Assembly: GCA_041576975.1 (NCBI GenBank)
Contig: JBFGJY010000002.1
Span: 32,187 to 96,186, forward strand
Source: Gammaproteobacteria bacterium
Lineage (GTDB): Bacteria > Pseudomonadota > Gammaproteobacteria > UBA4575
Direction of reading: 5' to 3'
Length of the DNA: 64,000 bases
Under the pieces are notes generated by a model. That model had not been told where the DNA came from. It ran no database searches and saw nothing but the letters and a program-made list of their open reading frames with translations. Position 1 is the first letter of the stretch, and every line of letters begins with the position of its first letter. The position numbers were made by a program, and so were the translations under genes. Below are positions 52,688 to 60,611 of the stretch, one piece after another.

Positions 52688-52718
52688 GAGCGCCTTCTTT
52701 GTGGAGGCGCTTTTTTTA
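52688..52718. terminator. Rho-independent terminator after amtB (shared with the convergent speE)
   Basis: agcgcc-ttctttgtgg-aggcgct hairpin followed by TTTTTTT. Confidence 0.65.
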
Positions 52719-52723
52719 TGCAA

Positions 52724-53569
52724 CTATTTTATAAATTGTGGTGTTGCAAAACTGGCCAGATGCATAGCATGGTTGTAATAACGTGTAGCAAACGTTAGTG
52801 GTTTAGCATCCTTTGCACGTGTAAATGATATTTGATTATCTTTACTAGCTATTGTTGCTGACCACCAACCCGTCGGATAACTTGGTTGCGGGAAAAAGAT
52901 GAGCTTAGCGCTTATAAACCCAGCCTCTCGCATACTTGCCTGCATAGGTTTTATGATACGGTCAAAGTGAACTAATGGAGATTCACTTTGCTGAACAAGT
53001 AAGCCATTCGACTTTAGTGCACGTAAACAGTTTTGATAAAAAGGTGTCGAAAATAAACCTTTGGCTGGACCAATTGGGTCTGTGCTATCTACAATAATGA
53101 CGTCAATTGAATCATTTTCAGCTTTGCACATCCACTCTATTGCATCTTCAAAAACCAATTCGACGCGCGGGTCATCATTGGCCTCACATAAAACTGGAAA
53201 ATATTTCTCTGCAAGCTTAGTTACACGCTCATCAATTTCTACCTGAGTAATTTTTTGCAAACATGTATGCTTCGCAACTTCACGGAGTGTGCCGCAGTCG
53301 CCGCCTCCTACAATGATTACATTGGAGGGGTTAGCATGGCTGAATAAGGCGGGGTGTGCCATCATTTCATGGTATATAAAGTTATCACGTTCCGTTAACA
53401 TCACAAATCCATCAATTACCATTAAGTTACCAAAGCCTTTAGTTGAGTAGATCTCTATTTTCTGAAAAAAGGTTTGTTCTTCGTGAAGTTTTTCGTAAAT
53501 TTCCATTGAGAATGCAGTTCCACATTCTGTACATTCTTCAGTAAACCATTTTTTATTTGTATTCAGCAT
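52724..53569 (-). CDS. speE: Spermidine synthase
   Basis: 281 aa. VIVGGGDCG motif and Asp-rich active-site region. Confidence 0.88.
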   Translation of the reverse strand: MLNTNKKWFTEECTECGTAFSMEIYEKLHEEQTFFQKIEIYSTKGFGNLMVIDGFVMLTERDNFIYHEMMAHPALFSHANPSNVIIVGGGDCGTLREVAKHTCLQKITQVEIDERVTKLAEKYFPVLCEANDDPRVELVFEDAIEWMCKAENDSIDVIIVDSTDPIGPAKGLFSTPFYQNCLRALKSNGLLVQQSESPLVHFDRIIKPMQASMREAGFISAKLIFFPQPSYPTGWWSATIASKDNQISFTRAKDAKPLTFATRYYNHAMHLASFATPQFIK

Positions 53570-53648
53570 TTCAATTCCTGTTAAATTGTCGATTCCATTG
53601 TGCGCCTGATAATTATTGTAAGTAAAAAAAGATTAAGAGAATAAGATT

Positions 53649-55562
53649 ATGAGTGCTCATAAGTCATGGAATATTGAATCAGCCAAATTGCATTATCGTA
53701 TCGCCAATTGGGGTATGGGTCTTTTTGATATCAATACTATGGGGCATATCACCGTAAAGGCAGGATTTGCCCAATTAGATTTATATGAGTTGTGGAAGCA
53801 GCTAAGGGGGCAAGGTATTGGATTGCCAGTATTAGTACGCTTTCCACATATTCTGCAACAGCTACTAAGTAATTTATACAACGCGTTTGAACAAGCAATT
53901 TTATCTTATAAATACGCAGGGGACTATATTGCTGCCTATCCTATAAAAGTTAATCAGCAAGCCTCTGTAATTCGACATTTTCATAATCAAACTCAATGGC
54001 CCATTGCATTTGAGGTTGGTAGTAAGGCCGAACTTATAGGCTGTCTCGGAATAGTACAAAAACAAAATCAAATCATAATTTGTAATGGTTATAAAGATGA
54101 AGCATATATTCGCTTGGCTTTTATTGGTGGTTTGTTGGGCCATGAAGTAGTTATTGTTTTAGAGAGCTTAGTTGAATTTCAACATGTCTTAAAGCTATCT
54201 GCTGAGCTCAATATTAACCCAACTCTTGGAATGCGTGTTCGCTTATCATCTATTGCGGATGGTAACTGGCAAAATACAGGTGGGAAGCGTTCAAAATTTG
54301 GATTGACCTCAGCTGAAGTATTACGACTACTCAAAGAGTTAAAAGACAATAATGCGATTGAATGGATGCGCATGCTACATTTTCATATGGGCTCACAAAT
54401 CCCTTCCTTGCAACATATTCGTGCCGGAGTTCAGGAAGGCATGCGATATTTCACAGAACTTACTAAGCTTGGGATTAAATTTTCTAAACTAAATATTGGT
54501 GGGGGTTTGGCAGTTGATTACGAAGGCAGCTACTCAAATTCATATTTCTCAATGAACTATTCAATTAATGATTACGCGAATACAATTATTAACGTTGTAA
54601 ATTCTATATGCCAAGAAAAAGGAATCCAGGCACCAACTATTTTGAGTGAAAATGGGCGTGCAATGACTGCTTATCATGCGGTTTTATTAACTAATGTAAT
54701 TGATGCTGAATACCAACAAGAAAATGCATTTATTAATGATACATGCACATCTCAAAATCGGAATTTTACTAATCCAAACTTAAAGTTGCTTGTTGATTTA
54801 AAGGCCCATATTGCGTTAGATACTCAGGATATAGAAAGTTATCTGGGCTGTTCGAAAAGTTATGACAAGTTGATAAAAATTATGCAAGAGATAGAAGAAA
54901 ATTTTTCTAGTGGTACCATTTCACTGGCTGATAAAGCGCATGCAGAAAAACTAACCAATATGATTTATAGGCAGCTGTTAAAATTTCACGACTATCTACC
55001 AGAGGAGTACCAACGCGAGCTTGAGGAGAAGTTTATAGATAAATATTTCTGTAATTTTTCATTATTTCAATCGACTCCAGATGTTTGGGGGTTGAATCAA
55101 ATTTTTCCAATTTTACCGTTGCATCGTTTAAAAGAAGACCCGCAGCGAAAGGTGCGGCTACATGACCTAACCTGCGACTCGGATGGGCGGATAGATACCT
55201 ATGTAGAAAATGGCTCTATTAAATCTTATCTGTCTTTACATGAATTTCGCCCCGATCAAGATTATATTTTAGGCCTGTTTCTAGTAGGGGCTTATCAAGA
55301 GATACTTGGTGATTTACATAACCTCTTTGGGGATACTCATGCGGTTAATATAGAGCTGAATTCCGATGGAGGCTATAAAATACGTGAGGAAGAGCCTGGC
55401 GATACCATCGAGGAAATACTATCTTATGTACACATTGATACCACTAACATGCGTCATATCTGGTTGGAAAGGCTTACTCAAATGAAAGCATCTGCTAGAA
55501 CTAAAAAGTTTGTGTTACAAGAACTGGAAGCTTCCTTGCAAGCAAACAGCTATTTAAACTAA
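53649..55562 (+). CDS. speA: Biosynthetic arginine decarboxylase
   Basis: 637 aa with SpeA-family architecture (PLP-dependent Orn/Arg decarboxylase fold and a C-terminal domain). Confidence 0.9.
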   Translation: MSAHKSWNIESAKLHYRIANWGMGLFDINTMGHITVKAGFAQLDLYELWKQLRGQGIGLPVLVRFPHILQQLLSNLYNAFEQAILSYKYAGDYIAAYPIKVNQQASVIRHFHNQTQWPIAFEVGSKAELIGCLGIVQKQNQIIICNGYKDEAYIRLAFIGGLLGHEVVIVLESLVEFQHVLKLSAELNINPTLGMRVRLSSIADGNWQNTGGKRSKFGLTSAEVLRLLKELKDNNAIEWMRMLHFHMGSQIPSLQHIRAGVQEGMRYFTELTKLGIKFSKLNIGGGLAVDYEGSYSNSYFSMNYSINDYANTIINVVNSICQEKGIQAPTILSENGRAMTAYHAVLLTNVIDAEYQQENAFINDTCTSQNRNFTNPNLKLLVDLKAHIALDTQDIESYLGCSKSYDKLIKIMQEIEENFSSGTISLADKAHAEKLTNMIYRQLLKFHDYLPEEYQRELEEKFIDKYFCNFSLFQSTPDVWGLNQIFPILPLHRLKEDPQRKVRLHDLTCDSDGRIDTYVENGSIKSYLSLHEFRPDQDYILGLFLVGAYQEILGDLHNLFGDTHAVNIELNSDGGYKIREEEPGDTIEEILSYVHIDTTNMRHIWLERLTQMKASARTKKFVLQELEASLQANSYLN

Positions 55563-55594
55563 TTTACACTTCAAGAATCCCAGAATCGATAAAA

Positions 55595-56452
55595 ATGCTA
55601 GCCCAAATTGTTTTAATACTTGCACTATTATTAATTTTAGTTGGCATGATCATGGTGTTGTTAGATGCCTTTTCGGAGAGTTTTATTTGGGGTTTATTGG
55701 TTTTATTGCTGGTGCCGATTTTTGGCCCAATATATTCTTTTGTTAAGTGGCATAAAGACCAAGCGCGCAATGGTTTTGCGATGAGTTTAGTAGGTGTCGT
55801 GTTGGTAGTTGCTGGTATCTATGGTGGTGGTGTACATAGTATACCTGGCTTAGGTAATCAAGAAATTGTAAAAAACCTGCCTAGCGCATTGCCACCCGCT
55901 GAACCGTTATCCAATGAAGAAGCTGCTGCAAAGATTGAAATAGAAGATGATGGTGAGTATGACCCTATTCTAAGTACTAACAAAGATAGATATTCGACTA
56001 AAGAAATTGAACCCTTAGCTCCAAAAGAAGATAAAACTGTAAAACACGCTGTTCGCACGAAGGTCCGCAAAATTCCATTGAGTATTGAAGATGTAGATTT
56101 ATCTATTGGTTCTAATGTTGAAGTTGTATTTGTAGATGGTGCAACAAAACGTGGGCGGTTAATTGCTAGCGCAGAGGATTCGATTTCGTTAGAGGAACAA
56201 AAAAGTGGAGGTATGGTTTCATTCGAACATAAATTTGAAAAAATAAAATCAATTGTATTACTAATCGACCCCAGTGCAGCCCCACCGCCACCAGTAGTTA
56301 AAAAACAAGATCCGGTGTCAAAGCCAGGCGCAAGTGTTGAAACTACTGTATCCAAAGAACTGGTTACACCCGAGCACGAGACTAGCCTTACTCCTCCGAC
56401 ACTTGAACAACAAGCACCGAATAAGCCTCGTTCTGAAACAAATTCTTATTAG
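55595..56452 (+). CDS. Hypothetical membrane protein (285 aa): 3 N-terminal TM, central beta-rich domain, Pro-rich C-terminus
   Basis: Starts 33 nt after the speA stop and is probably co-transcribed. No recognised family. Confidence 0.5.
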   Translation: MLAQIVLILALLLILVGMIMVLLDAFSESFIWGLLVLLLVPIFGPIYSFVKWHKDQARNGFAMSLVGVVLVVAGIYGGGVHSIPGLGNQEIVKNLPSALPPAEPLSNEEAAAKIEIEDDGEYDPILSTNKDRYSTKEIEPLAPKEDKTVKHAVRTKVRKIPLSIEDVDLSIGSNVEVVFVDGATKRGRLIASAEDSISLEEQKSGGMVSFEHKFEKIKSIVLLIDPSAAPPPPVVKKQDPVSKPGASVETTVSKELVTPEHETSLTPPTLEQQAPNKPRSETNSY

Positions 56453-56499
56453 TTAACATTGACTACATCCTAAGCTTCTATAGGTAATTTATAGAACAG

Positions 56500-56754
56500 G
56501 TGTTAGCAATGAAATGTTTTGTCTATAGAAGTTCAAAAAAAGTAGATACCTATATCTACTTAGATCAAAAGGATAACTTTGGGAAAATTCCAAATCAACT
56601 ATTAAAGCTTTTTGGTAAACCAAAGTTTGCATTAGAGTTTGATCTGACAGAAAATCGTAAACTTGCAATTGGGGATGCCAAACAAGTAATGGCCAAACTA
56701 AAAGAACAAGGCTATTTTTTACAAATGCCGCCAGAAAATAATTTGCCAGCCTAA
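56500..56754 (+). CDS. ycgL: YcgL-domain (DUF709) protein
   Basis: CFVYRSSKKVDTYIYLDQKDNF....QGYFLQMPP aligns with E. coli YcgL. The likely start is ATG at 56509. Confidence 0.8.
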   Translation: MLAMKCFVYRSSKKVDTYIYLDQKDNFGKIPNQLLKLFGKPKFALEFDLTENRKLAIGDAKQVMAKLKEQGYFLQMPPENNLPA

Positions 56755-56781
56755 GACTATTTTATTATTAATCATGGAACC

Positions 56782-57180
56782 ATGACGCAACGCTTCATAT
56801 TTCATATTATTCTTTGTATTTTCTTTGCCGCAATAGGTTGGTGGCTATTTTTACAATTAGGAAATAATGGAAATAAATTAATTACCTCTTTATCTGTAGC
56901 TAGTTACTGGTTTGTATTTTTAATTTTTGTATTTTTTAGCTGGATTTTCTACTGGTTTTTACATAAACGTTCAACTAAAGCATGGACTGTTGCGCAATTC
57001 ATTGCATTGTCAATTGCGATTGTCGCTACAGTCTCAATATTATTTATCTCTCATGAACATGAAAATCGACGTAAGGCAGAAGAGGAAGCTTTAATACAAA
57101 AACAGGAATCGAGTGGCTTGAAATCTGAAGATGATGATGAGGATTCATCAATATTAGAAGAAGATTTAGAGCCTCTGTAA
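56782..57180 (+). CDS. Hypothetical 4-TM membrane protein with an acidic C-terminal tail (132 aa)
   Basis: Hydrophobic core followed by EDDDEDSSILEEDLEPL. Confidence 0.5.
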   Translation: MTQRFIFHIILCIFFAAIGWWLFLQLGNNGNKLITSLSVASYWFVFLIFVFFSWIFYWFLHKRSTKAWTVAQFIALSIAIVATVSILFISHEHENRRKAEEEALIQKQESSGLKSEDDDEDSSILEEDLEPL

Positions 57181-57194
57181 TTAAATAGCAAACT

Positions 57195-58391
57195 CTAGAG
57201 TTTGAACATCGACTTACTAGCTCGTCGTAACTCAATTAGAATATCTTTTTGTAGTTGATCAAGTTCAGCAATTTTAGATTCAGCTGCACCACTTAACCAA
57301 GCTGTTGCAGTGTTTTTCTTCTTGGTAAAGTAATTTAAGATAAATTGTTCTGACATTAATACAAATTTAATAGCTTTTTCTGGATCGACTTGTATAAATG
57401 GATTTTGTGCAATTTGTAAAGCAGAAGCTTCTTGTGCTGCGCAGAACTTATTTAATAAATAGTATAGAGATATTCGAGCATGTCGTAATGAGTTGATAAC
57501 GCGTTGTTTTGATTCCTCATTTAAACTTGCTTCAACGATGGCATCAAGCCATAAGATTAGATCGTTCTCTGAAATAACTACTTCACTAGCTTTGATTTCA
57601 TTGACTAAATCATAAATTCGTTGTTGCACTTCTTTAGTTTCATCTTTAGTTTGCTTGCGCTTCATGGTGCGTTTCCACAACGTTTGCGCTTCTTGCAGAT
57701 CTGCTCGCAAAATATCAAGCTCTTGCTGTTTTTGTTGAATAGTTTCTTCACGTGTTTCAATAAGCTTGCGCTTTTGGTGAATGGCACGTGCTAATACTTT
57801 CAGGCGTAAAATATAATATTCAGATAAAATTTTACCTATAGAAGCCGTTTGTTTGCGCAGTAGCCCTATAGAGGTTTTAAATCGTTTAGTATCGTCGTCA
57901 TTTATAGGCTTGACATTTTCAAGATTCGCCAGGCTTTCATGTAGATGAATTGTTTCACTTCTCACATCTATTAATAAATTATTAATTGCATTGATGTGTT
58001 TAACAAACGTTGTATTTCCTACTTTTCTTGTTCCGCGCTGTGCGGATTGCAACATGTCTACTAGTAAAAGGATTTTGTTTTTAAAGACCCGTAAATTAGC
58101 TGATCCTGTGGTTGTTTTGGCTTTATCCAATGCAACAACAAGCTGATCGCCATAGGTATCTTGATCCCGCATGCGGCGTTTTAGATGAAAAGAGTTTGCC
58201 GCCATAATTAGATCATCGACTGCACTGCGTGAAGCCATCGGTATTTTTTCACTGATATCAGCAGGAATATTGTTAGGCAGTTGTTCAATAGGCAGTTCAG
58301 AGATGCGAGCAGGCGGAAGCGTCTGCAACAGTTTTAGAAACTGCTGCAACGATAATGGTGCTTGAATTTCCGTATTGGTTTGTGCATTCAT
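57195..58391 (-). CDS. Hypothetical coiled-coil protein (398 aa), no recognisable catalytic motif
   Basis: Long heptad-rich, charged, alpha-helical sequence. Convergent with the speA-linked operon. Confidence 0.55.
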   Translation of the reverse strand: MNAQTNTEIQAPLSLQQFLKLLQTLPPARISELPIEQLPNNIPADISEKIPMASRSAVDDLIMAANSFHLKRRMRDQDTYGDQLVVALDKAKTTTGSANLRVFKNKILLLVDMLQSAQRGTRKVGNTTFVKHINAINNLLIDVRSETIHLHESLANLENVKPINDDDTKRFKTSIGLLRKQTASIGKILSEYYILRLKVLARAIHQKRKLIETREETIQQKQQELDILRADLQEAQTLWKRTMKRKQTKDETKEVQQRIYDLVNEIKASEVVISENDLILWLDAIVEASLNEESKQRVINSLRHARISLYYLLNKFCAAQEASALQIAQNPFIQVDPEKAIKFVLMSEQFILNYFTKKKNTATAWLSGAAESKIAELDQLQKDILIELRRASKSMFKL

Positions 58392-59593: not shown

Positions 59594-60121
59594 ACTAAAA
59601 GTCGCAGTAATACCTATGTTTTTTTATATATAAGGGCAGACAAGGTTTAAATCAACCCCCCAAACACGAGACTCAGTGTAATTTACTAGATATAGAATGA
59701 GTACTATAAATAAAAGTAATAGTAGAATTTGTTTTTATATGGACTAAGTTTGCTATGCATTGTTCACTTGCTTTAAATTAATAAAATGGATTAGATTGCT
59801 CCAGACAGTGCGCAAACTTTACCAGGTTTGATTAATCAGCGCGCTTCATGTTTATCTCTATCGGAAGCTTACGGCTATTATGATGATGAGAACCAAGTCT
59901 GCAGCAGAATAAGCTGGCAGCAATTTACATTTGAAGCGGCAAGGATTCAAGCAGTATTAAAAAAATGAGCAAATTTTAAATAGATGATTGAAAAAGAGTT
60001 GCTTGCACTGACATTAAAAATTAAATGAGCTAAACATTTAAAAATAATTTGTAAAAAAATATAGACACTATGTATCAATCTTTGCCAGTAGAAAAAAACC
60101 TAAATATCGTGACTAATAACT

Positions 60122-60611
60122 ATGTCAATAAAATTTAAACAATATTTATTACCAACTCTACTCTTGATACTTGTTGCTTGTGGTACAACTCATAGTCCTA
60201 CCTATGGGCCTATCAACGAAGACGTTTTTCAGGATGTGTTTTTAACGAGTATTGGAGATCAGCAACAGCAAATTTTGTTTTACAGTCGCGCAATCTGGTA
60301 TCCAAATAAAAACGGATTTAAATTTTTACCAGCAGGGAAAAAAATCACATAAAGGAATAATTGTGTGTACTGATCAAGGCGTTTATTTCACTGAATGGAA
60401 TACTAGTGGCAGTTATAGTACCGAATTTTTAGCAAAATATGATCAAATTGAAATGTTGCGACATGCAGCGAATAATCTTTTTGGGCGTGTGGTCATAAAA
60501 AAAGACCATTTTAATAGTTTTGAAATTCTAGGTATTGATGGAGCAGATTTACCAAATAAAGAACAAACGGAAATTGCTTATAAAATCATTCAACAACAAG
60601 CTGAAAGTTAA
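60122..60611 (+). pseudogene. Lipoprotein gene (about 163 aa) interrupted by a +1/-1 frameshift at an A7 tract (60338-60344)
   Basis: ORF 60122-60352 (signal peptide plus lipobox LVAC) and ORF 60252-60611 are in adjacent frames and fuse if one A is removed from the homopolymer. Confidence 0.5.

Follow-up and report, generated by a model that had tools for sequence, protein, structure and literature searches.

One established setting of a bacterial arginine decarboxylase gene is the speA-speB arrangement of E. coli. The regulation and compartmentation of the enzyme itself remain, to our knowledge, poorly understood. For YcgL (DUF709), the structure of which has been available for years, we know of no function and no partner; the literature consulted on YcgL, DUF709, speA and Sm-like proteins gave nothing on function. 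In the window (the whole 64,000-nt stretch of gammaproteobacterial DNA that was analysed), the ycgL gene stands in the same string of genes as speA, separated from it by a gene for a 285-residue protein, hereafter X, and followed by a gene for a 132-residue membrane protein. The speA-X-ycgL neighbourhood is a conserved gene module, and with it YcgL gains its first consistent genomic partner.

The locus and its genes

The features of the locus are as follows.

52724-53569, minus strand: speE, spermidine synthase, divergent from speA (NCBIfam NF002010, 351 bits, cut-off 260)
53586-53613, plus strand: sigma-70-like promoter candidate for speA, TTGTCG-16-GATAAT (consensus scan)
53649-55562, plus strand: speA, biosynthetic arginine decarboxylase (NF003763, 723 bits, cut-off 369; TIGR01273, 705 bits, cut-off 624)
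55595-56452, plus strand: X, 285-aa ORF
55595-55834, plus strand: X residues 1-80, membrane part with three hydrophobic helices (hydropathy; AF2)
55835-56059, plus strand: X residues 81-155, acidic linker, mostly unstructured (pLDDT 55-75)
56060-56272, plus strand: X residues 156-226, Sm/LSm-like small beta-barrel
56273-56452, plus strand: X residues 227-285 and stop codon, Pro/Thr/Glu-rich disordered tail, lineage-specific (pLDDT 32-39)
56453-56481, plus strand: conserved non-coding block, candidate ycgL promoter, TTAACA-17 nt-TTCTAT with CTAAGCT in the spacer
56509-56754 (GTG alternative at 56500), plus strand: ycgL (DUF709/PF05166), small soluble protein (Pfam, 104.7 bits; PDB 2H7A, E=3e-19)
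56782-57180, plus strand: gene for the 132-aa membrane protein, clade-restricted and fast-evolving (ORF; three helices by AF2)
57189-57204, no strand: 16-nt perfect palindrome CAAACTCTAGAGTTTG between convergent stop codons (read from sequence)

The three plus-strand genes that an earlier note on this DNA had placed behind speA are all present, with intergenic gaps of 32, 56 and 27 nt from speA onwards. Of the spacings given in that note (33, 47 and 27 nt) only the last stands, the 47-nt figure having arisen because the GTG at 56500 was taken as the ycgL start; YcgL homologues all begin with MKCF or MQCF, which corresponds here to the ATG at 56509. The three ORFs are real genes and not chance ORFs, since close homologues of X number 91, its family makes up 388 representative clusters when grouped at 50% identity, and the 132-aa protein has homologues too. 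That they could be chance or mis-called frames draws on the absence of family annotation and on nothing else, and this idea, to which we give practically no weight, is refuted by hundreds of homologues, conservation at the protein level, a kept gene order and a confident barrel fold.

SpeA reaches an equivalog-level HMM match (NCBIfam), and speE is divergent from speA at every locus which extends that far. Within the 64-kb window no other polyamine gene was found, speB, aguA/B, speD and the pot genes being absent from it. Scanned for tRNAs and Rfam families, the window likewise gave nothing, and a profile search of the neighbouring 398-aa protein against the PDB was without a match.

The identification of the second gene as ycgL is clear, with the PF05166 match (cut-off 25 bits) running over profile positions 1-73 of 73, and with residues 1-76 matching the NMR structure of E. 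coli YcgL (2H7A) at E=3e-19; identity to E. coli YcgL is approximately 45%. The 132-aa protein is, as had been described, polytopic with an Asp/Glu-rich end, in that the AF2 model places helices at residues 2-28, 36-60 and 66-116, all three predicted to be transmembrane, followed by an acidic disordered tail. Eight word-search matches and syntenic homologues were found for this protein, which had no Pfam match and, in a search with the AF2 model, no significant fold match. It also holds that the three proteins are without an assigned function, insofar as Pfam/NCBIfam and family-wide profile searches gave none; profile searches for polyamine-binding, transporter or enzyme signatures in the three proteins found none either.

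Conservation and transcription of the neighbourhood

The arrangement of a divergent speE followed by speA, X, ycgL and the 132-aa gene is found in 16 of 16 species-level marine MAGs of the clade ("Thiotrichales"/Gammaproteobacteria), as well as in four metagenomic loci (L001-L004). The genome-contig scan with X alignment A1 returned the close clade only, and a metagenome-contig scan with a three-sequence alignment returned one locus. Beyond these, speA-X-ycgL occurs in four more distant lineages (L006, L007-9, L012 and L031), with GC contents of 39-67%, in which X is only 23-29% identical while SpeA is 40-43% identical. Among these, L006 (52% GC) has different flanking genes around speA-X-ycgL, L012 (62% GC) carries the same three genes and in L031 (67% GC) they are flanked by UPF0014 and thioredoxin-like genes; a further locus, L013 (68% GC), has speA-X without ycgL. 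The link to the speA/speE pair that had been remarked upon is, therefore, not an accident of this genome, and X can be regarded on good evidence as linked to speA. As regards the set of three genes, however, what is conserved at the core is speA-X, in most cases together with ycgL, whereas the 132-aa gene is found in the closest clades only: a homologue (162 aa) is present in L006 and none was found at L007-9, while identity across clade 1 is 37-54%. In published work, an Acidihalobacter urease-cluster neighbourhood contains ycgL and hypothetical genes according to the legend of Figure 5, and adiA (arginine decarboxylase) and speE according to the text (PMC9062700). Acidihalobacter, which can be cultivated, would on this basis appear to carry the module.

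It is appropriate at this point to consider that the three genes might have no polyamine specificity, being instead concerned with general envelope or cell-cycle housekeeping, with their place behind speA inherited and kept for convenience of co-expression. YcgL is widespread in Gammaproteobacteria, and E. coli keeps its ycgL with ycgM and ycgN near minCDE, away from speA. Moreover, the most distant members of the X family lie in unrelated contexts, with neither speA nor ycgL adjoining, and on the contig carrying P0128 there is, by gene calls only, an apparent X-ycgL pair with a CBS-domain gene, and not speA, immediately upstream. The wider region from glnK-amtB to nadA shows extensive synteny in clades 1 and 3, from which it is seen that these genomes tend to keep their gene order, and every example comes from the Gammaproteobacteria, such that inheritance may account for part of the conservation. 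Set against this, speA-X has outlasted the replacement of its remaining flanking genes at L006, L031 and L013, and persists across 37-68% GC and at X identities of 23-29%; moreover, the gaps leave too little space for the genes to be expressed independently. Overall, we judge a housekeeping role of this kind to be unlikely.

The gaps between the genes bear on how they are transcribed. Between speA and X they measure 18-38 nt in the window and 20 loci of clade 1, narrowing to 3-4 nt at L007-9; between X and ycgL they fall to 2 nt, with a 4-nt overlap by gene calls at L012; and between ycgL and the 132-aa gene they are 8-32 nt. In the window, the 32-nt speA-X gap leaves no room for an independent promoter. 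A pattern scan of 55563-57180, and of the equivalent stretches of L001 and L002, found no terminator-like sites. The palindrome at 57189-57204, which was not flagged as an intrinsic terminator, may mark where the transcription unit ends, although as a candidate it is weak. As for initiation, the candidate speA promoter lies in the 79-nt speE/speA intergenic region, where such sites are no commoner than in shuffled sequence. The block upstream of ycgL has a single occurrence in the window, where chance alone would give 0.01, and aligns with TTGAC(T/A)-17-T(C/T)TTAT in 12 clade-1 loci, whereas the intergenic DNA around it shows no conservation. With this candidate promoter, which is also in keeping with the housekeeping role considered above, ycgL and the 132-aa gene may be transcribed alone as well, and the picture of a single operon is thereby weakened. 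A single operon from speA to the 132-aa gene is nevertheless likely. We have fair confidence that speA and X are co-transcribed, and similar confidence that ycgL and the 132-aa gene are reached by read-through from the speA-X transcript, probably with a promoter of their own in addition in this clade.

Architecture, fold and orientation of X

X is an inner-membrane protein of a large undescribed family, members of which combine three transmembrane helices, an acidic, motif-bearing linker and a C-terminal Sm/LSm-like barrel. The three helices that had been proposed are found both by hydropathy and in the AF2 model (residues 2-28, 30-50, which is kinked, and 55-76; pLDDT 81-92), and the membrane module has loop motifs AF(R/K)xxxxWG and WxxxxARNGF and ends in YGG, features which are kept in more than 140 representatives. 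In the linker, the short motifs PxxEPLPNEExAA, YDPxLS and IEPLAPKEDKTV form invariant or near-invariant columns in close-homologue alignment A1. The linker profile is detected in the nearer X subfamily only (P0100-P0134), and the PN(E/Q)-type motif is present in the speA-linked X members and not in the unlinked members at L010 and L011. The beta-rich part, which the earlier note had put in the middle of the protein, sits instead near the C-terminus (residues 158-224). The tail with its PPPP and TPP runs is present here (residues 227-285 or thereabouts, pLDDT below 40), but it is not a feature of the family; homologues lack it, or have a shorter or unrelated one. With X, none of the curated family models scores above threshold: searches of 33 and 51 members against Pfam and NCBIfam gave sub-threshold matches only, for example to ABZJ_00895 and Cyt_bd_oxida_II, and these reflect transmembrane composition. 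The membrane module was also considered as a paralogue of the 132-aa protein, which was rejected at an hhalign probability of 0.2%.

Structure prediction, proposed at the outset as a check on X, gives a confident Sm/LSm-like fold for the barrel. In the predicted model, residues 158-224 form a five-stranded bent beta-barrel which superposes on Sm, Hfq and RimP C-terminal structures. At the profile level, 10 of 33 close members match SM-ATX (best E=1.7e-5) and 7 of 33 match RimP_C, with the window protein itself without a match; LSM is matched by one of 51 members, and a match to Edc3 LSm stands at E about 0.1. X is not the RimP ribosome maturation factor, as its N-terminus is the three-helix membrane module and there is no RimP_N Pfam match. 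MscS channels and NfeD proteins have a few transmembrane helices and then a small cytoplasmic Sm- or OB-like barrel, a resemblance to X which is superficial. For MscS there is no MS_channel Pfam match, nor does MscS appear among the 50-60 best structural matches; moreover, its beta-domain follows directly after the pore helix, whereas X has a 75-residue disordered linker between its membrane part and barrel. NfeD was rejected in the same way, with no NfeD Pfam match, none among the top 50-60 structural matches and no SPFH partner gene.

The superposition on Hfq raises the idea that X is a membrane-tethered RNA binder, assembling Sm rings and acting post-transcriptionally, for example on speA mRNA or in polyamine-responsive translation. 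We regard this as very improbable. This class of small beta-barrel is structurally promiscuous, X shares only 12-22% identity with Hfq, the profile matches are to RimP-C and to LSm types that bind proteins and do not form rings, and the barrel is acidic, with 10 K/R against 12 D/E. The charge and cysteine evidence that favours a periplasmic location argues against it also.

With regard to that location, a periplasmic barrel is slightly favoured. The preference follows from the loop charges in the window protein (three K/R, net +2, plus His in loop 49-61, with loop 23-31 acidic), from the depletion of cysteine in X barrels (7 in 8,950 residues over 157 members, against approximately 1% in cytoplasmic proteins of the window), from a pair of cysteines exactly 73 residues apart which flanks the barrel and is conserved in four X members, and from the 132-aa protein, which is predicted to be N-in/C-out, as is X. 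Counting against it, Sm/LSm and RimP-C domains, SpeA and YcgL are all normally cytoplasmic. Across 143 X members both short loops are net positive, such that the topology is ambiguous family-wide.

Were the barrel to face the cytoplasm, X could be a membrane tether or regulator, with the barrel and linker motifs binding SpeA and/or YcgL and thereby localising or controlling arginine decarboxylase. The family-wide N-tail without K/R and the positive loop 1 (AFR/K), taken with three true transmembrane helices, fit such an N-out/C-in arrangement, while loop 2 is the richest in K/R, and loop 1 of the window protein is acidic. The gene junctions with two cytoplasmic proteins resemble those of translational coupling (speA-X at 3-4 nt, X-ycgL at 2 nt or overlapping). 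Furthermore, the linker motifs are conserved in the manner of short linear binding motifs, and the nearest profile matches (SM-ATX and Edc3 LSm) are to protein-binding LSm domains; eukaryotic domains of the Edc3/ataxin-2 type bind partner peptides. The extreme cysteine depletion of the barrel and the cysteine pair of one subfamily speak against a cytoplasmic barrel, and a tether of this type seems to us improbable.

A possible membrane accessory to polyamine synthesis

A polyamine-related envelope function for the three genes, as the earlier note had suggested, is something that we infer from gene neighbourhood. X may be a non-enzyme accessory to arginine decarboxylase and polyamine synthesis which acts at the membrane. 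The periplasm is the most likely location of its acidic linker and barrel, as it is of the acidic tail which ends the 132-aa protein. These acidic parts could bind, retain, sense or help to export agmatine, putrescine and spermidine, and YcgL might then be the cytoplasmic partner in the module; each of these steps is put forward with low confidence. Taken as a whole, the picture of a conserved module in which X is a periplasm-facing membrane accessory to polyamine synthesis, with YcgL as its cytoplasmic partner, is a tentative one, plausible but short of probable. The related proposal that X and YcgL together constitute a new membrane-associated accessory of polyamine biosynthesis, in which X either senses or handles the products or tethers and regulates SpeA, with YcgL as the soluble partner, is possible but must be considered doubtful.

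If X and YcgL do act as polyamine accessories, this would provide the first functional context for DUF709/YcgL together with a new family of 388 clusters, and a dedicated membrane partner of SpeA, if confirmed, would be a useful addition. Even if the link to speA is merely positional, the analysis still defines a new family of membrane-anchored Sm-like proteins, X being without any family model though hundreds of sequence clusters have the same architecture. A neighbourhood kept at 37-68% GC and 23-29% X identity makes this uncharacterised family testable.

In comparison with known systems, speA and speE are canonical here, and speA heads a co-directional string of genes as it does in the speA-speB arrangement of E. 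coli and in divergent speE/speA pairs. The difference lies in the genes downstream, which encode X, YcgL and the small 132-aa membrane protein, and not agmatinase or any other enzyme of the pathway. The YcgL of the window is, like that of E. coli, a full-length member of its family (81 aa; the RefSeq name is still 'PF05166 family protein YcgL'), lacking the C-terminal extension which is present in E. coli; the E. coli ycgL locus has no speA and no X-like neighbour, whereas ycgL here stands behind both. Finally, in contrast to Hfq, the RimP C-terminal domain and the LSm domains of Edc3 and ataxin-2, the barrel of X is anchored to the membrane through three transmembrane helices and an acidic linker of some 75 residues and is possibly periplasmic.

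Gene order and setting of the locus

The gene for a 285-aa protein, here called X, lies directly 3' of speA and is followed by ycgL and by the gene for a 132-aa membrane protein, TM132, all on the same strand.

Features of the locus (window positions; genes from ORF list and sequence)
52688-52712, plus strand: strong intrinsic-terminator-like hairpin (10 bp, 6 G-C pairs, then a T-run), 3' of amtB
52724-53569, minus strand: speE, divergent from speA; equivalog-level match
53649-55562, plus strand: speA; equivalog-level match
55595-56452, plus strand: X, 285-aa ORF
56453-56481, plus strand: promoter-like block TTAACA-17-TTCTAT, beginning at the first base past the X stop codon
56509-56754, plus strand: ycgL; full-length YcgL domain
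56782-57180, plus strand: TM132, 132-aa ORF
57195-58391, minus strand: 398-aa gene, convergent on the module

The intergenic gaps from speA to TM132 are 32, 56 and 27 nt; the 47 nt given for the second in the earlier note was measured from an upstream GTG, whereas ycgL homologues all start at the ATG. The same note proposed a speA-linked operon and, in this regard, a pattern scan from speA to the end of TM132, in the window and in two relatives, found no terminator-like site parting these genes from speA. The YcgL product matches the YcgL domain over its full length (104.7 bits) and E. coli YcgL, PDB 2H7A, with E=3e-19.

The upstream hairpin ends a Gcw_chp-glnK-amtB unit that precedes speE. 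Downstream, a perfect 16-nt palindrome, CAAACTCTAGAGTTTG (57189-57204), lies past the TM132 stop codon and overlaps the stop codon of the 398-aa gene that converges on it; it does not have the form of a canonical intrinsic terminator. The 398-aa protein appears to be all-helical, has no match in Pfam, NCBIfam or PDB, and shows stronger conservation than either speA or X (80-90% identity across the MAGs of clade 1, the closest relatives, and 52-56% in clade 3, the lineage of loci L007-L009); its gene is also present in locus L006, ~6 kb downstream.

Elsewhere the window carries ordinary chromosomal genes (recG, mrp, hemCDXY, argH, lysA, dapF, xerC, hslVU, ubiE/ubiB, uvrD, a TRAP transporter, polA, nadA, argS). 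Within its 64 kb there are no further polyamine genes besides speA and speE, and scans for RNA families and tRNAs gave no matches. Relatives have a ~600-aa AMP-binding (fadD-like) gene between nadA and the SPOR-domain gene; in the window only 63 N-terminal codons of it (41% identity) remain, at 59777-59965 (plus strand), and ~1.6 kb appears to be deleted. A lipoprotein gene at 60122-60611 (plus strand) is split by a frameshift into overlapping ORFs, 60122-60352 and 60252-60611, and is intact in L001 (158 aa); a pseudogene or else an error in the assembly would account for the split.

Conservation and transcription

As the earlier note suggested checking in relatives, the linkage of speA and X recurs across distant lineages.

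Arrangement in related loci (L-numbers), with X identity
Clade 1, 16 species-level MAGs and L001-L004 (GC ~37-39% in L001, L002): speE (minus strand), then speA-X-ycgL-TM132; 56-70%
L007-L009 (GC 39%): speE, speA-X-ycgL, junctions 2-47 nt, without the 132-aa gene; 23-27%
L006 (GC 52%): speE, speA-X-ycgL and a 162-aa TM132 homologue, other neighbours differing; 29%
L012 (GC 62%): speA (3' end)-X-ycgL, X and ycgL overlapping by 4 nt in gene calls; 25%
L031 (GC 67%): speE, speA-X-ycgL amid unrelated UPF0014 and thioredoxin-like genes; 23%
L013 (GC 68%): speA-X, then a hemerythrin gene, without ycgL; 26%
Contig of X-family member P0128 (gene calls only): X-ycgL 2 nt apart, a CBS-domain gene immediately upstream instead of speA
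L010, L011 (GC 60%, 68%): most distant, without the linker motif, no speA or ycgL neighbour visible (the L010 contig stops right after X); 28%

The clade-1 MAGs are labelled 'Gammaproteobacteria bacterium' or 'uncultured Thiotrichales', and their gene string is kept even where insertions part it from downstream genes. Where a distant lineage has a full-length speA (L006, L007-9, L031), its product shares 40-43% identity with SpeA of the window. From these lineage-by-lineage arrangements, the conserved core is speA-X; ycgL usually follows it, and TM132 counts as an addition at clade level. One locus, L016 (CAXMUG010000117.1), deposited as an 'uncultured Mycobacterium sp.' MAG, holds the complete string including speE and TM132, with an X ~62% identical to that of the window; most likely the contig was wrongly binned or wrongly labelled.

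In clade 1, 18-38 nt separate speA from X, and in L007-9 3-4 nt; between ycgL and TM132 lie 8-32 nt. The X-ycgL gap varies from 2 to 154 nt and reaches 487 nt at one locus. It contains, in 12 clade-1 loci, a conserved block with a -35-like TTGAC(T/A), a 17-nt spacer that includes CTAAGCT, and a -10-like T(C/T)TTAT. Chance alone would give 0.01 copies of the promoter-like block in the window, where a single copy is present. For ycgL of five related species, the ATG follows the -10-like hexamer by 6-7 nt, which may point to a leaderless transcript there. A long hairpin, which may be a terminator or attenuator, lies between X and the block in L018 (16-bp stem), L019, L023 and L004; the window's 56-nt gap is without one. 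We read speA and X as sharing one transcript from which ycgL and TM132 are read through, the latter two probably being also under their own promoter in clade 1.

Architecture and topology of X

No Pfam or NCBIfam model matches X, and a word-based search returned 91 homologues, every one from an uncultured gammaproteobacterium and at least 48% identical.

Parts of X, read from the homologue alignment and an AlphaFold2 model
Residues 1-80: membrane module of three hydrophobic helices; pLDDT 81-92
Residues 81-155: acidic linker, low-confidence model; strikingly conserved short motifs (EPLPNEExAA, YDPxLS, IEPLAPKEDKTV)
Residues 158-224: beta-barrel; pLDDT ~90
C-terminal of the barrel: Pro-rich tail, disordered (pLDDT <40), variable or missing in homologues

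As modelled, the barrel is a small barrel of Sm/LSm type, with Foldseek matches to RimP, Sm, Hfq and Edc3. Pfam SM-ATX matches 10 of 33 members and RimP_C seven, the window protein itself falling below significance. Such a fold could be that of a membrane-tethered Hfq-like RNA binder, which we consider unlikely; X does not belong to any of the families RimP, Hfq, MscS and NfeD. An exhaustive profile search gave 388 representative clusters at E<=1e-3; the membrane module and C-terminal barrel are common to most of the 149 clusters examined, the linker motifs being confined to the nearer subfamily, and among 51 diverse members none falls within a curated family. On this basis X is one of a sizeable family, so far undescribed, of Sm-like barrel proteins anchored in the membrane.

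TM132 has three predicted transmembrane helices, the third extending as a long helix into a disordered Asp/Glu-rich tail; it matches no family or fold, evolves fast (37-54% identity within the clade) and was rejected as a paralogue of the X membrane module.

With moderate probability for the barrel, X would be N-in/C-out, its linker and barrel periplasmic. In favour is the charge pattern of the window protein, whose first loop is acidic and whose second (KWHKDQAR) has three K/R, net +2, plus His, a pattern matched by TM132. The barrels are also nearly free of Cys (7 in 8,950 residues from 157 members, vs ~1% in the window's cytoplasmic proteins), and four divergent members (P0124, P0125, P0130, P0137) have exactly two, 73 residues apart and flanking the barrel, which suggests a disulfide and an extracytoplasmic domain. 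Against it, both loops are net positive and the N-tail lacks K/R across 143 members; moreover, SpeA and YcgL, the gene partners of X, are cytoplasmic, as are the relatives of its fold. The chief other reading makes X an adaptor of LSm type in the cytoplasm, which would tether or regulate SpeA and/or YcgL through the conserved linker motifs.

Proposed function and known systems

On the polyamine-related envelope function that the earlier note raised as possible, speA-X(-ycgL) proves to be deeply conserved and tightly spaced; from this we infer that X may be functionally coupled to arginine decarboxylase and polyamine synthesis, a coupling that stays hypothetical. A more cautious rival is that the module has some general function in the envelope and is simply carried along on the speA transcript; the recurrence of speA-X in distant lineages speaks for coupling. 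X carries no signature of catalysis, so its most plausible role would be an accessory one at the membrane. In the favoured, periplasmic reading, the acidic linker and barrel of X and the acidic tail of TM132 would lie at the periplasmic face, where they might bind, retain, sense or help export polycationic products.

In E. coli, ycgL lies beside ycgM and ycgN near minCDE, without an X partner. For an Acidihalobacter (Chromatiales) genome, a published figure legend (Figure 5) lists ycgL and hypothetical genes in a neighbourhood that, per the text, holds the arginine decarboxylase gene adiA and speE (PMC9062700). Neither the speA-X-ycgL module nor the X family was found described in the searchable literature. 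What appears to be new is an Sm-like barrel protein, anchored in the membrane, whose gene would be an accessory to a polyamine locus, its function being hypothetical; as comparative genomics the finding is solid, and YcgL, in the window a bona fide DUF709 member, gains its first consistent partner. X shares the Sm/LSm fold in its barrel, and the probable speA-X-ycgL operon differs from a pathway operon of the speAB type.
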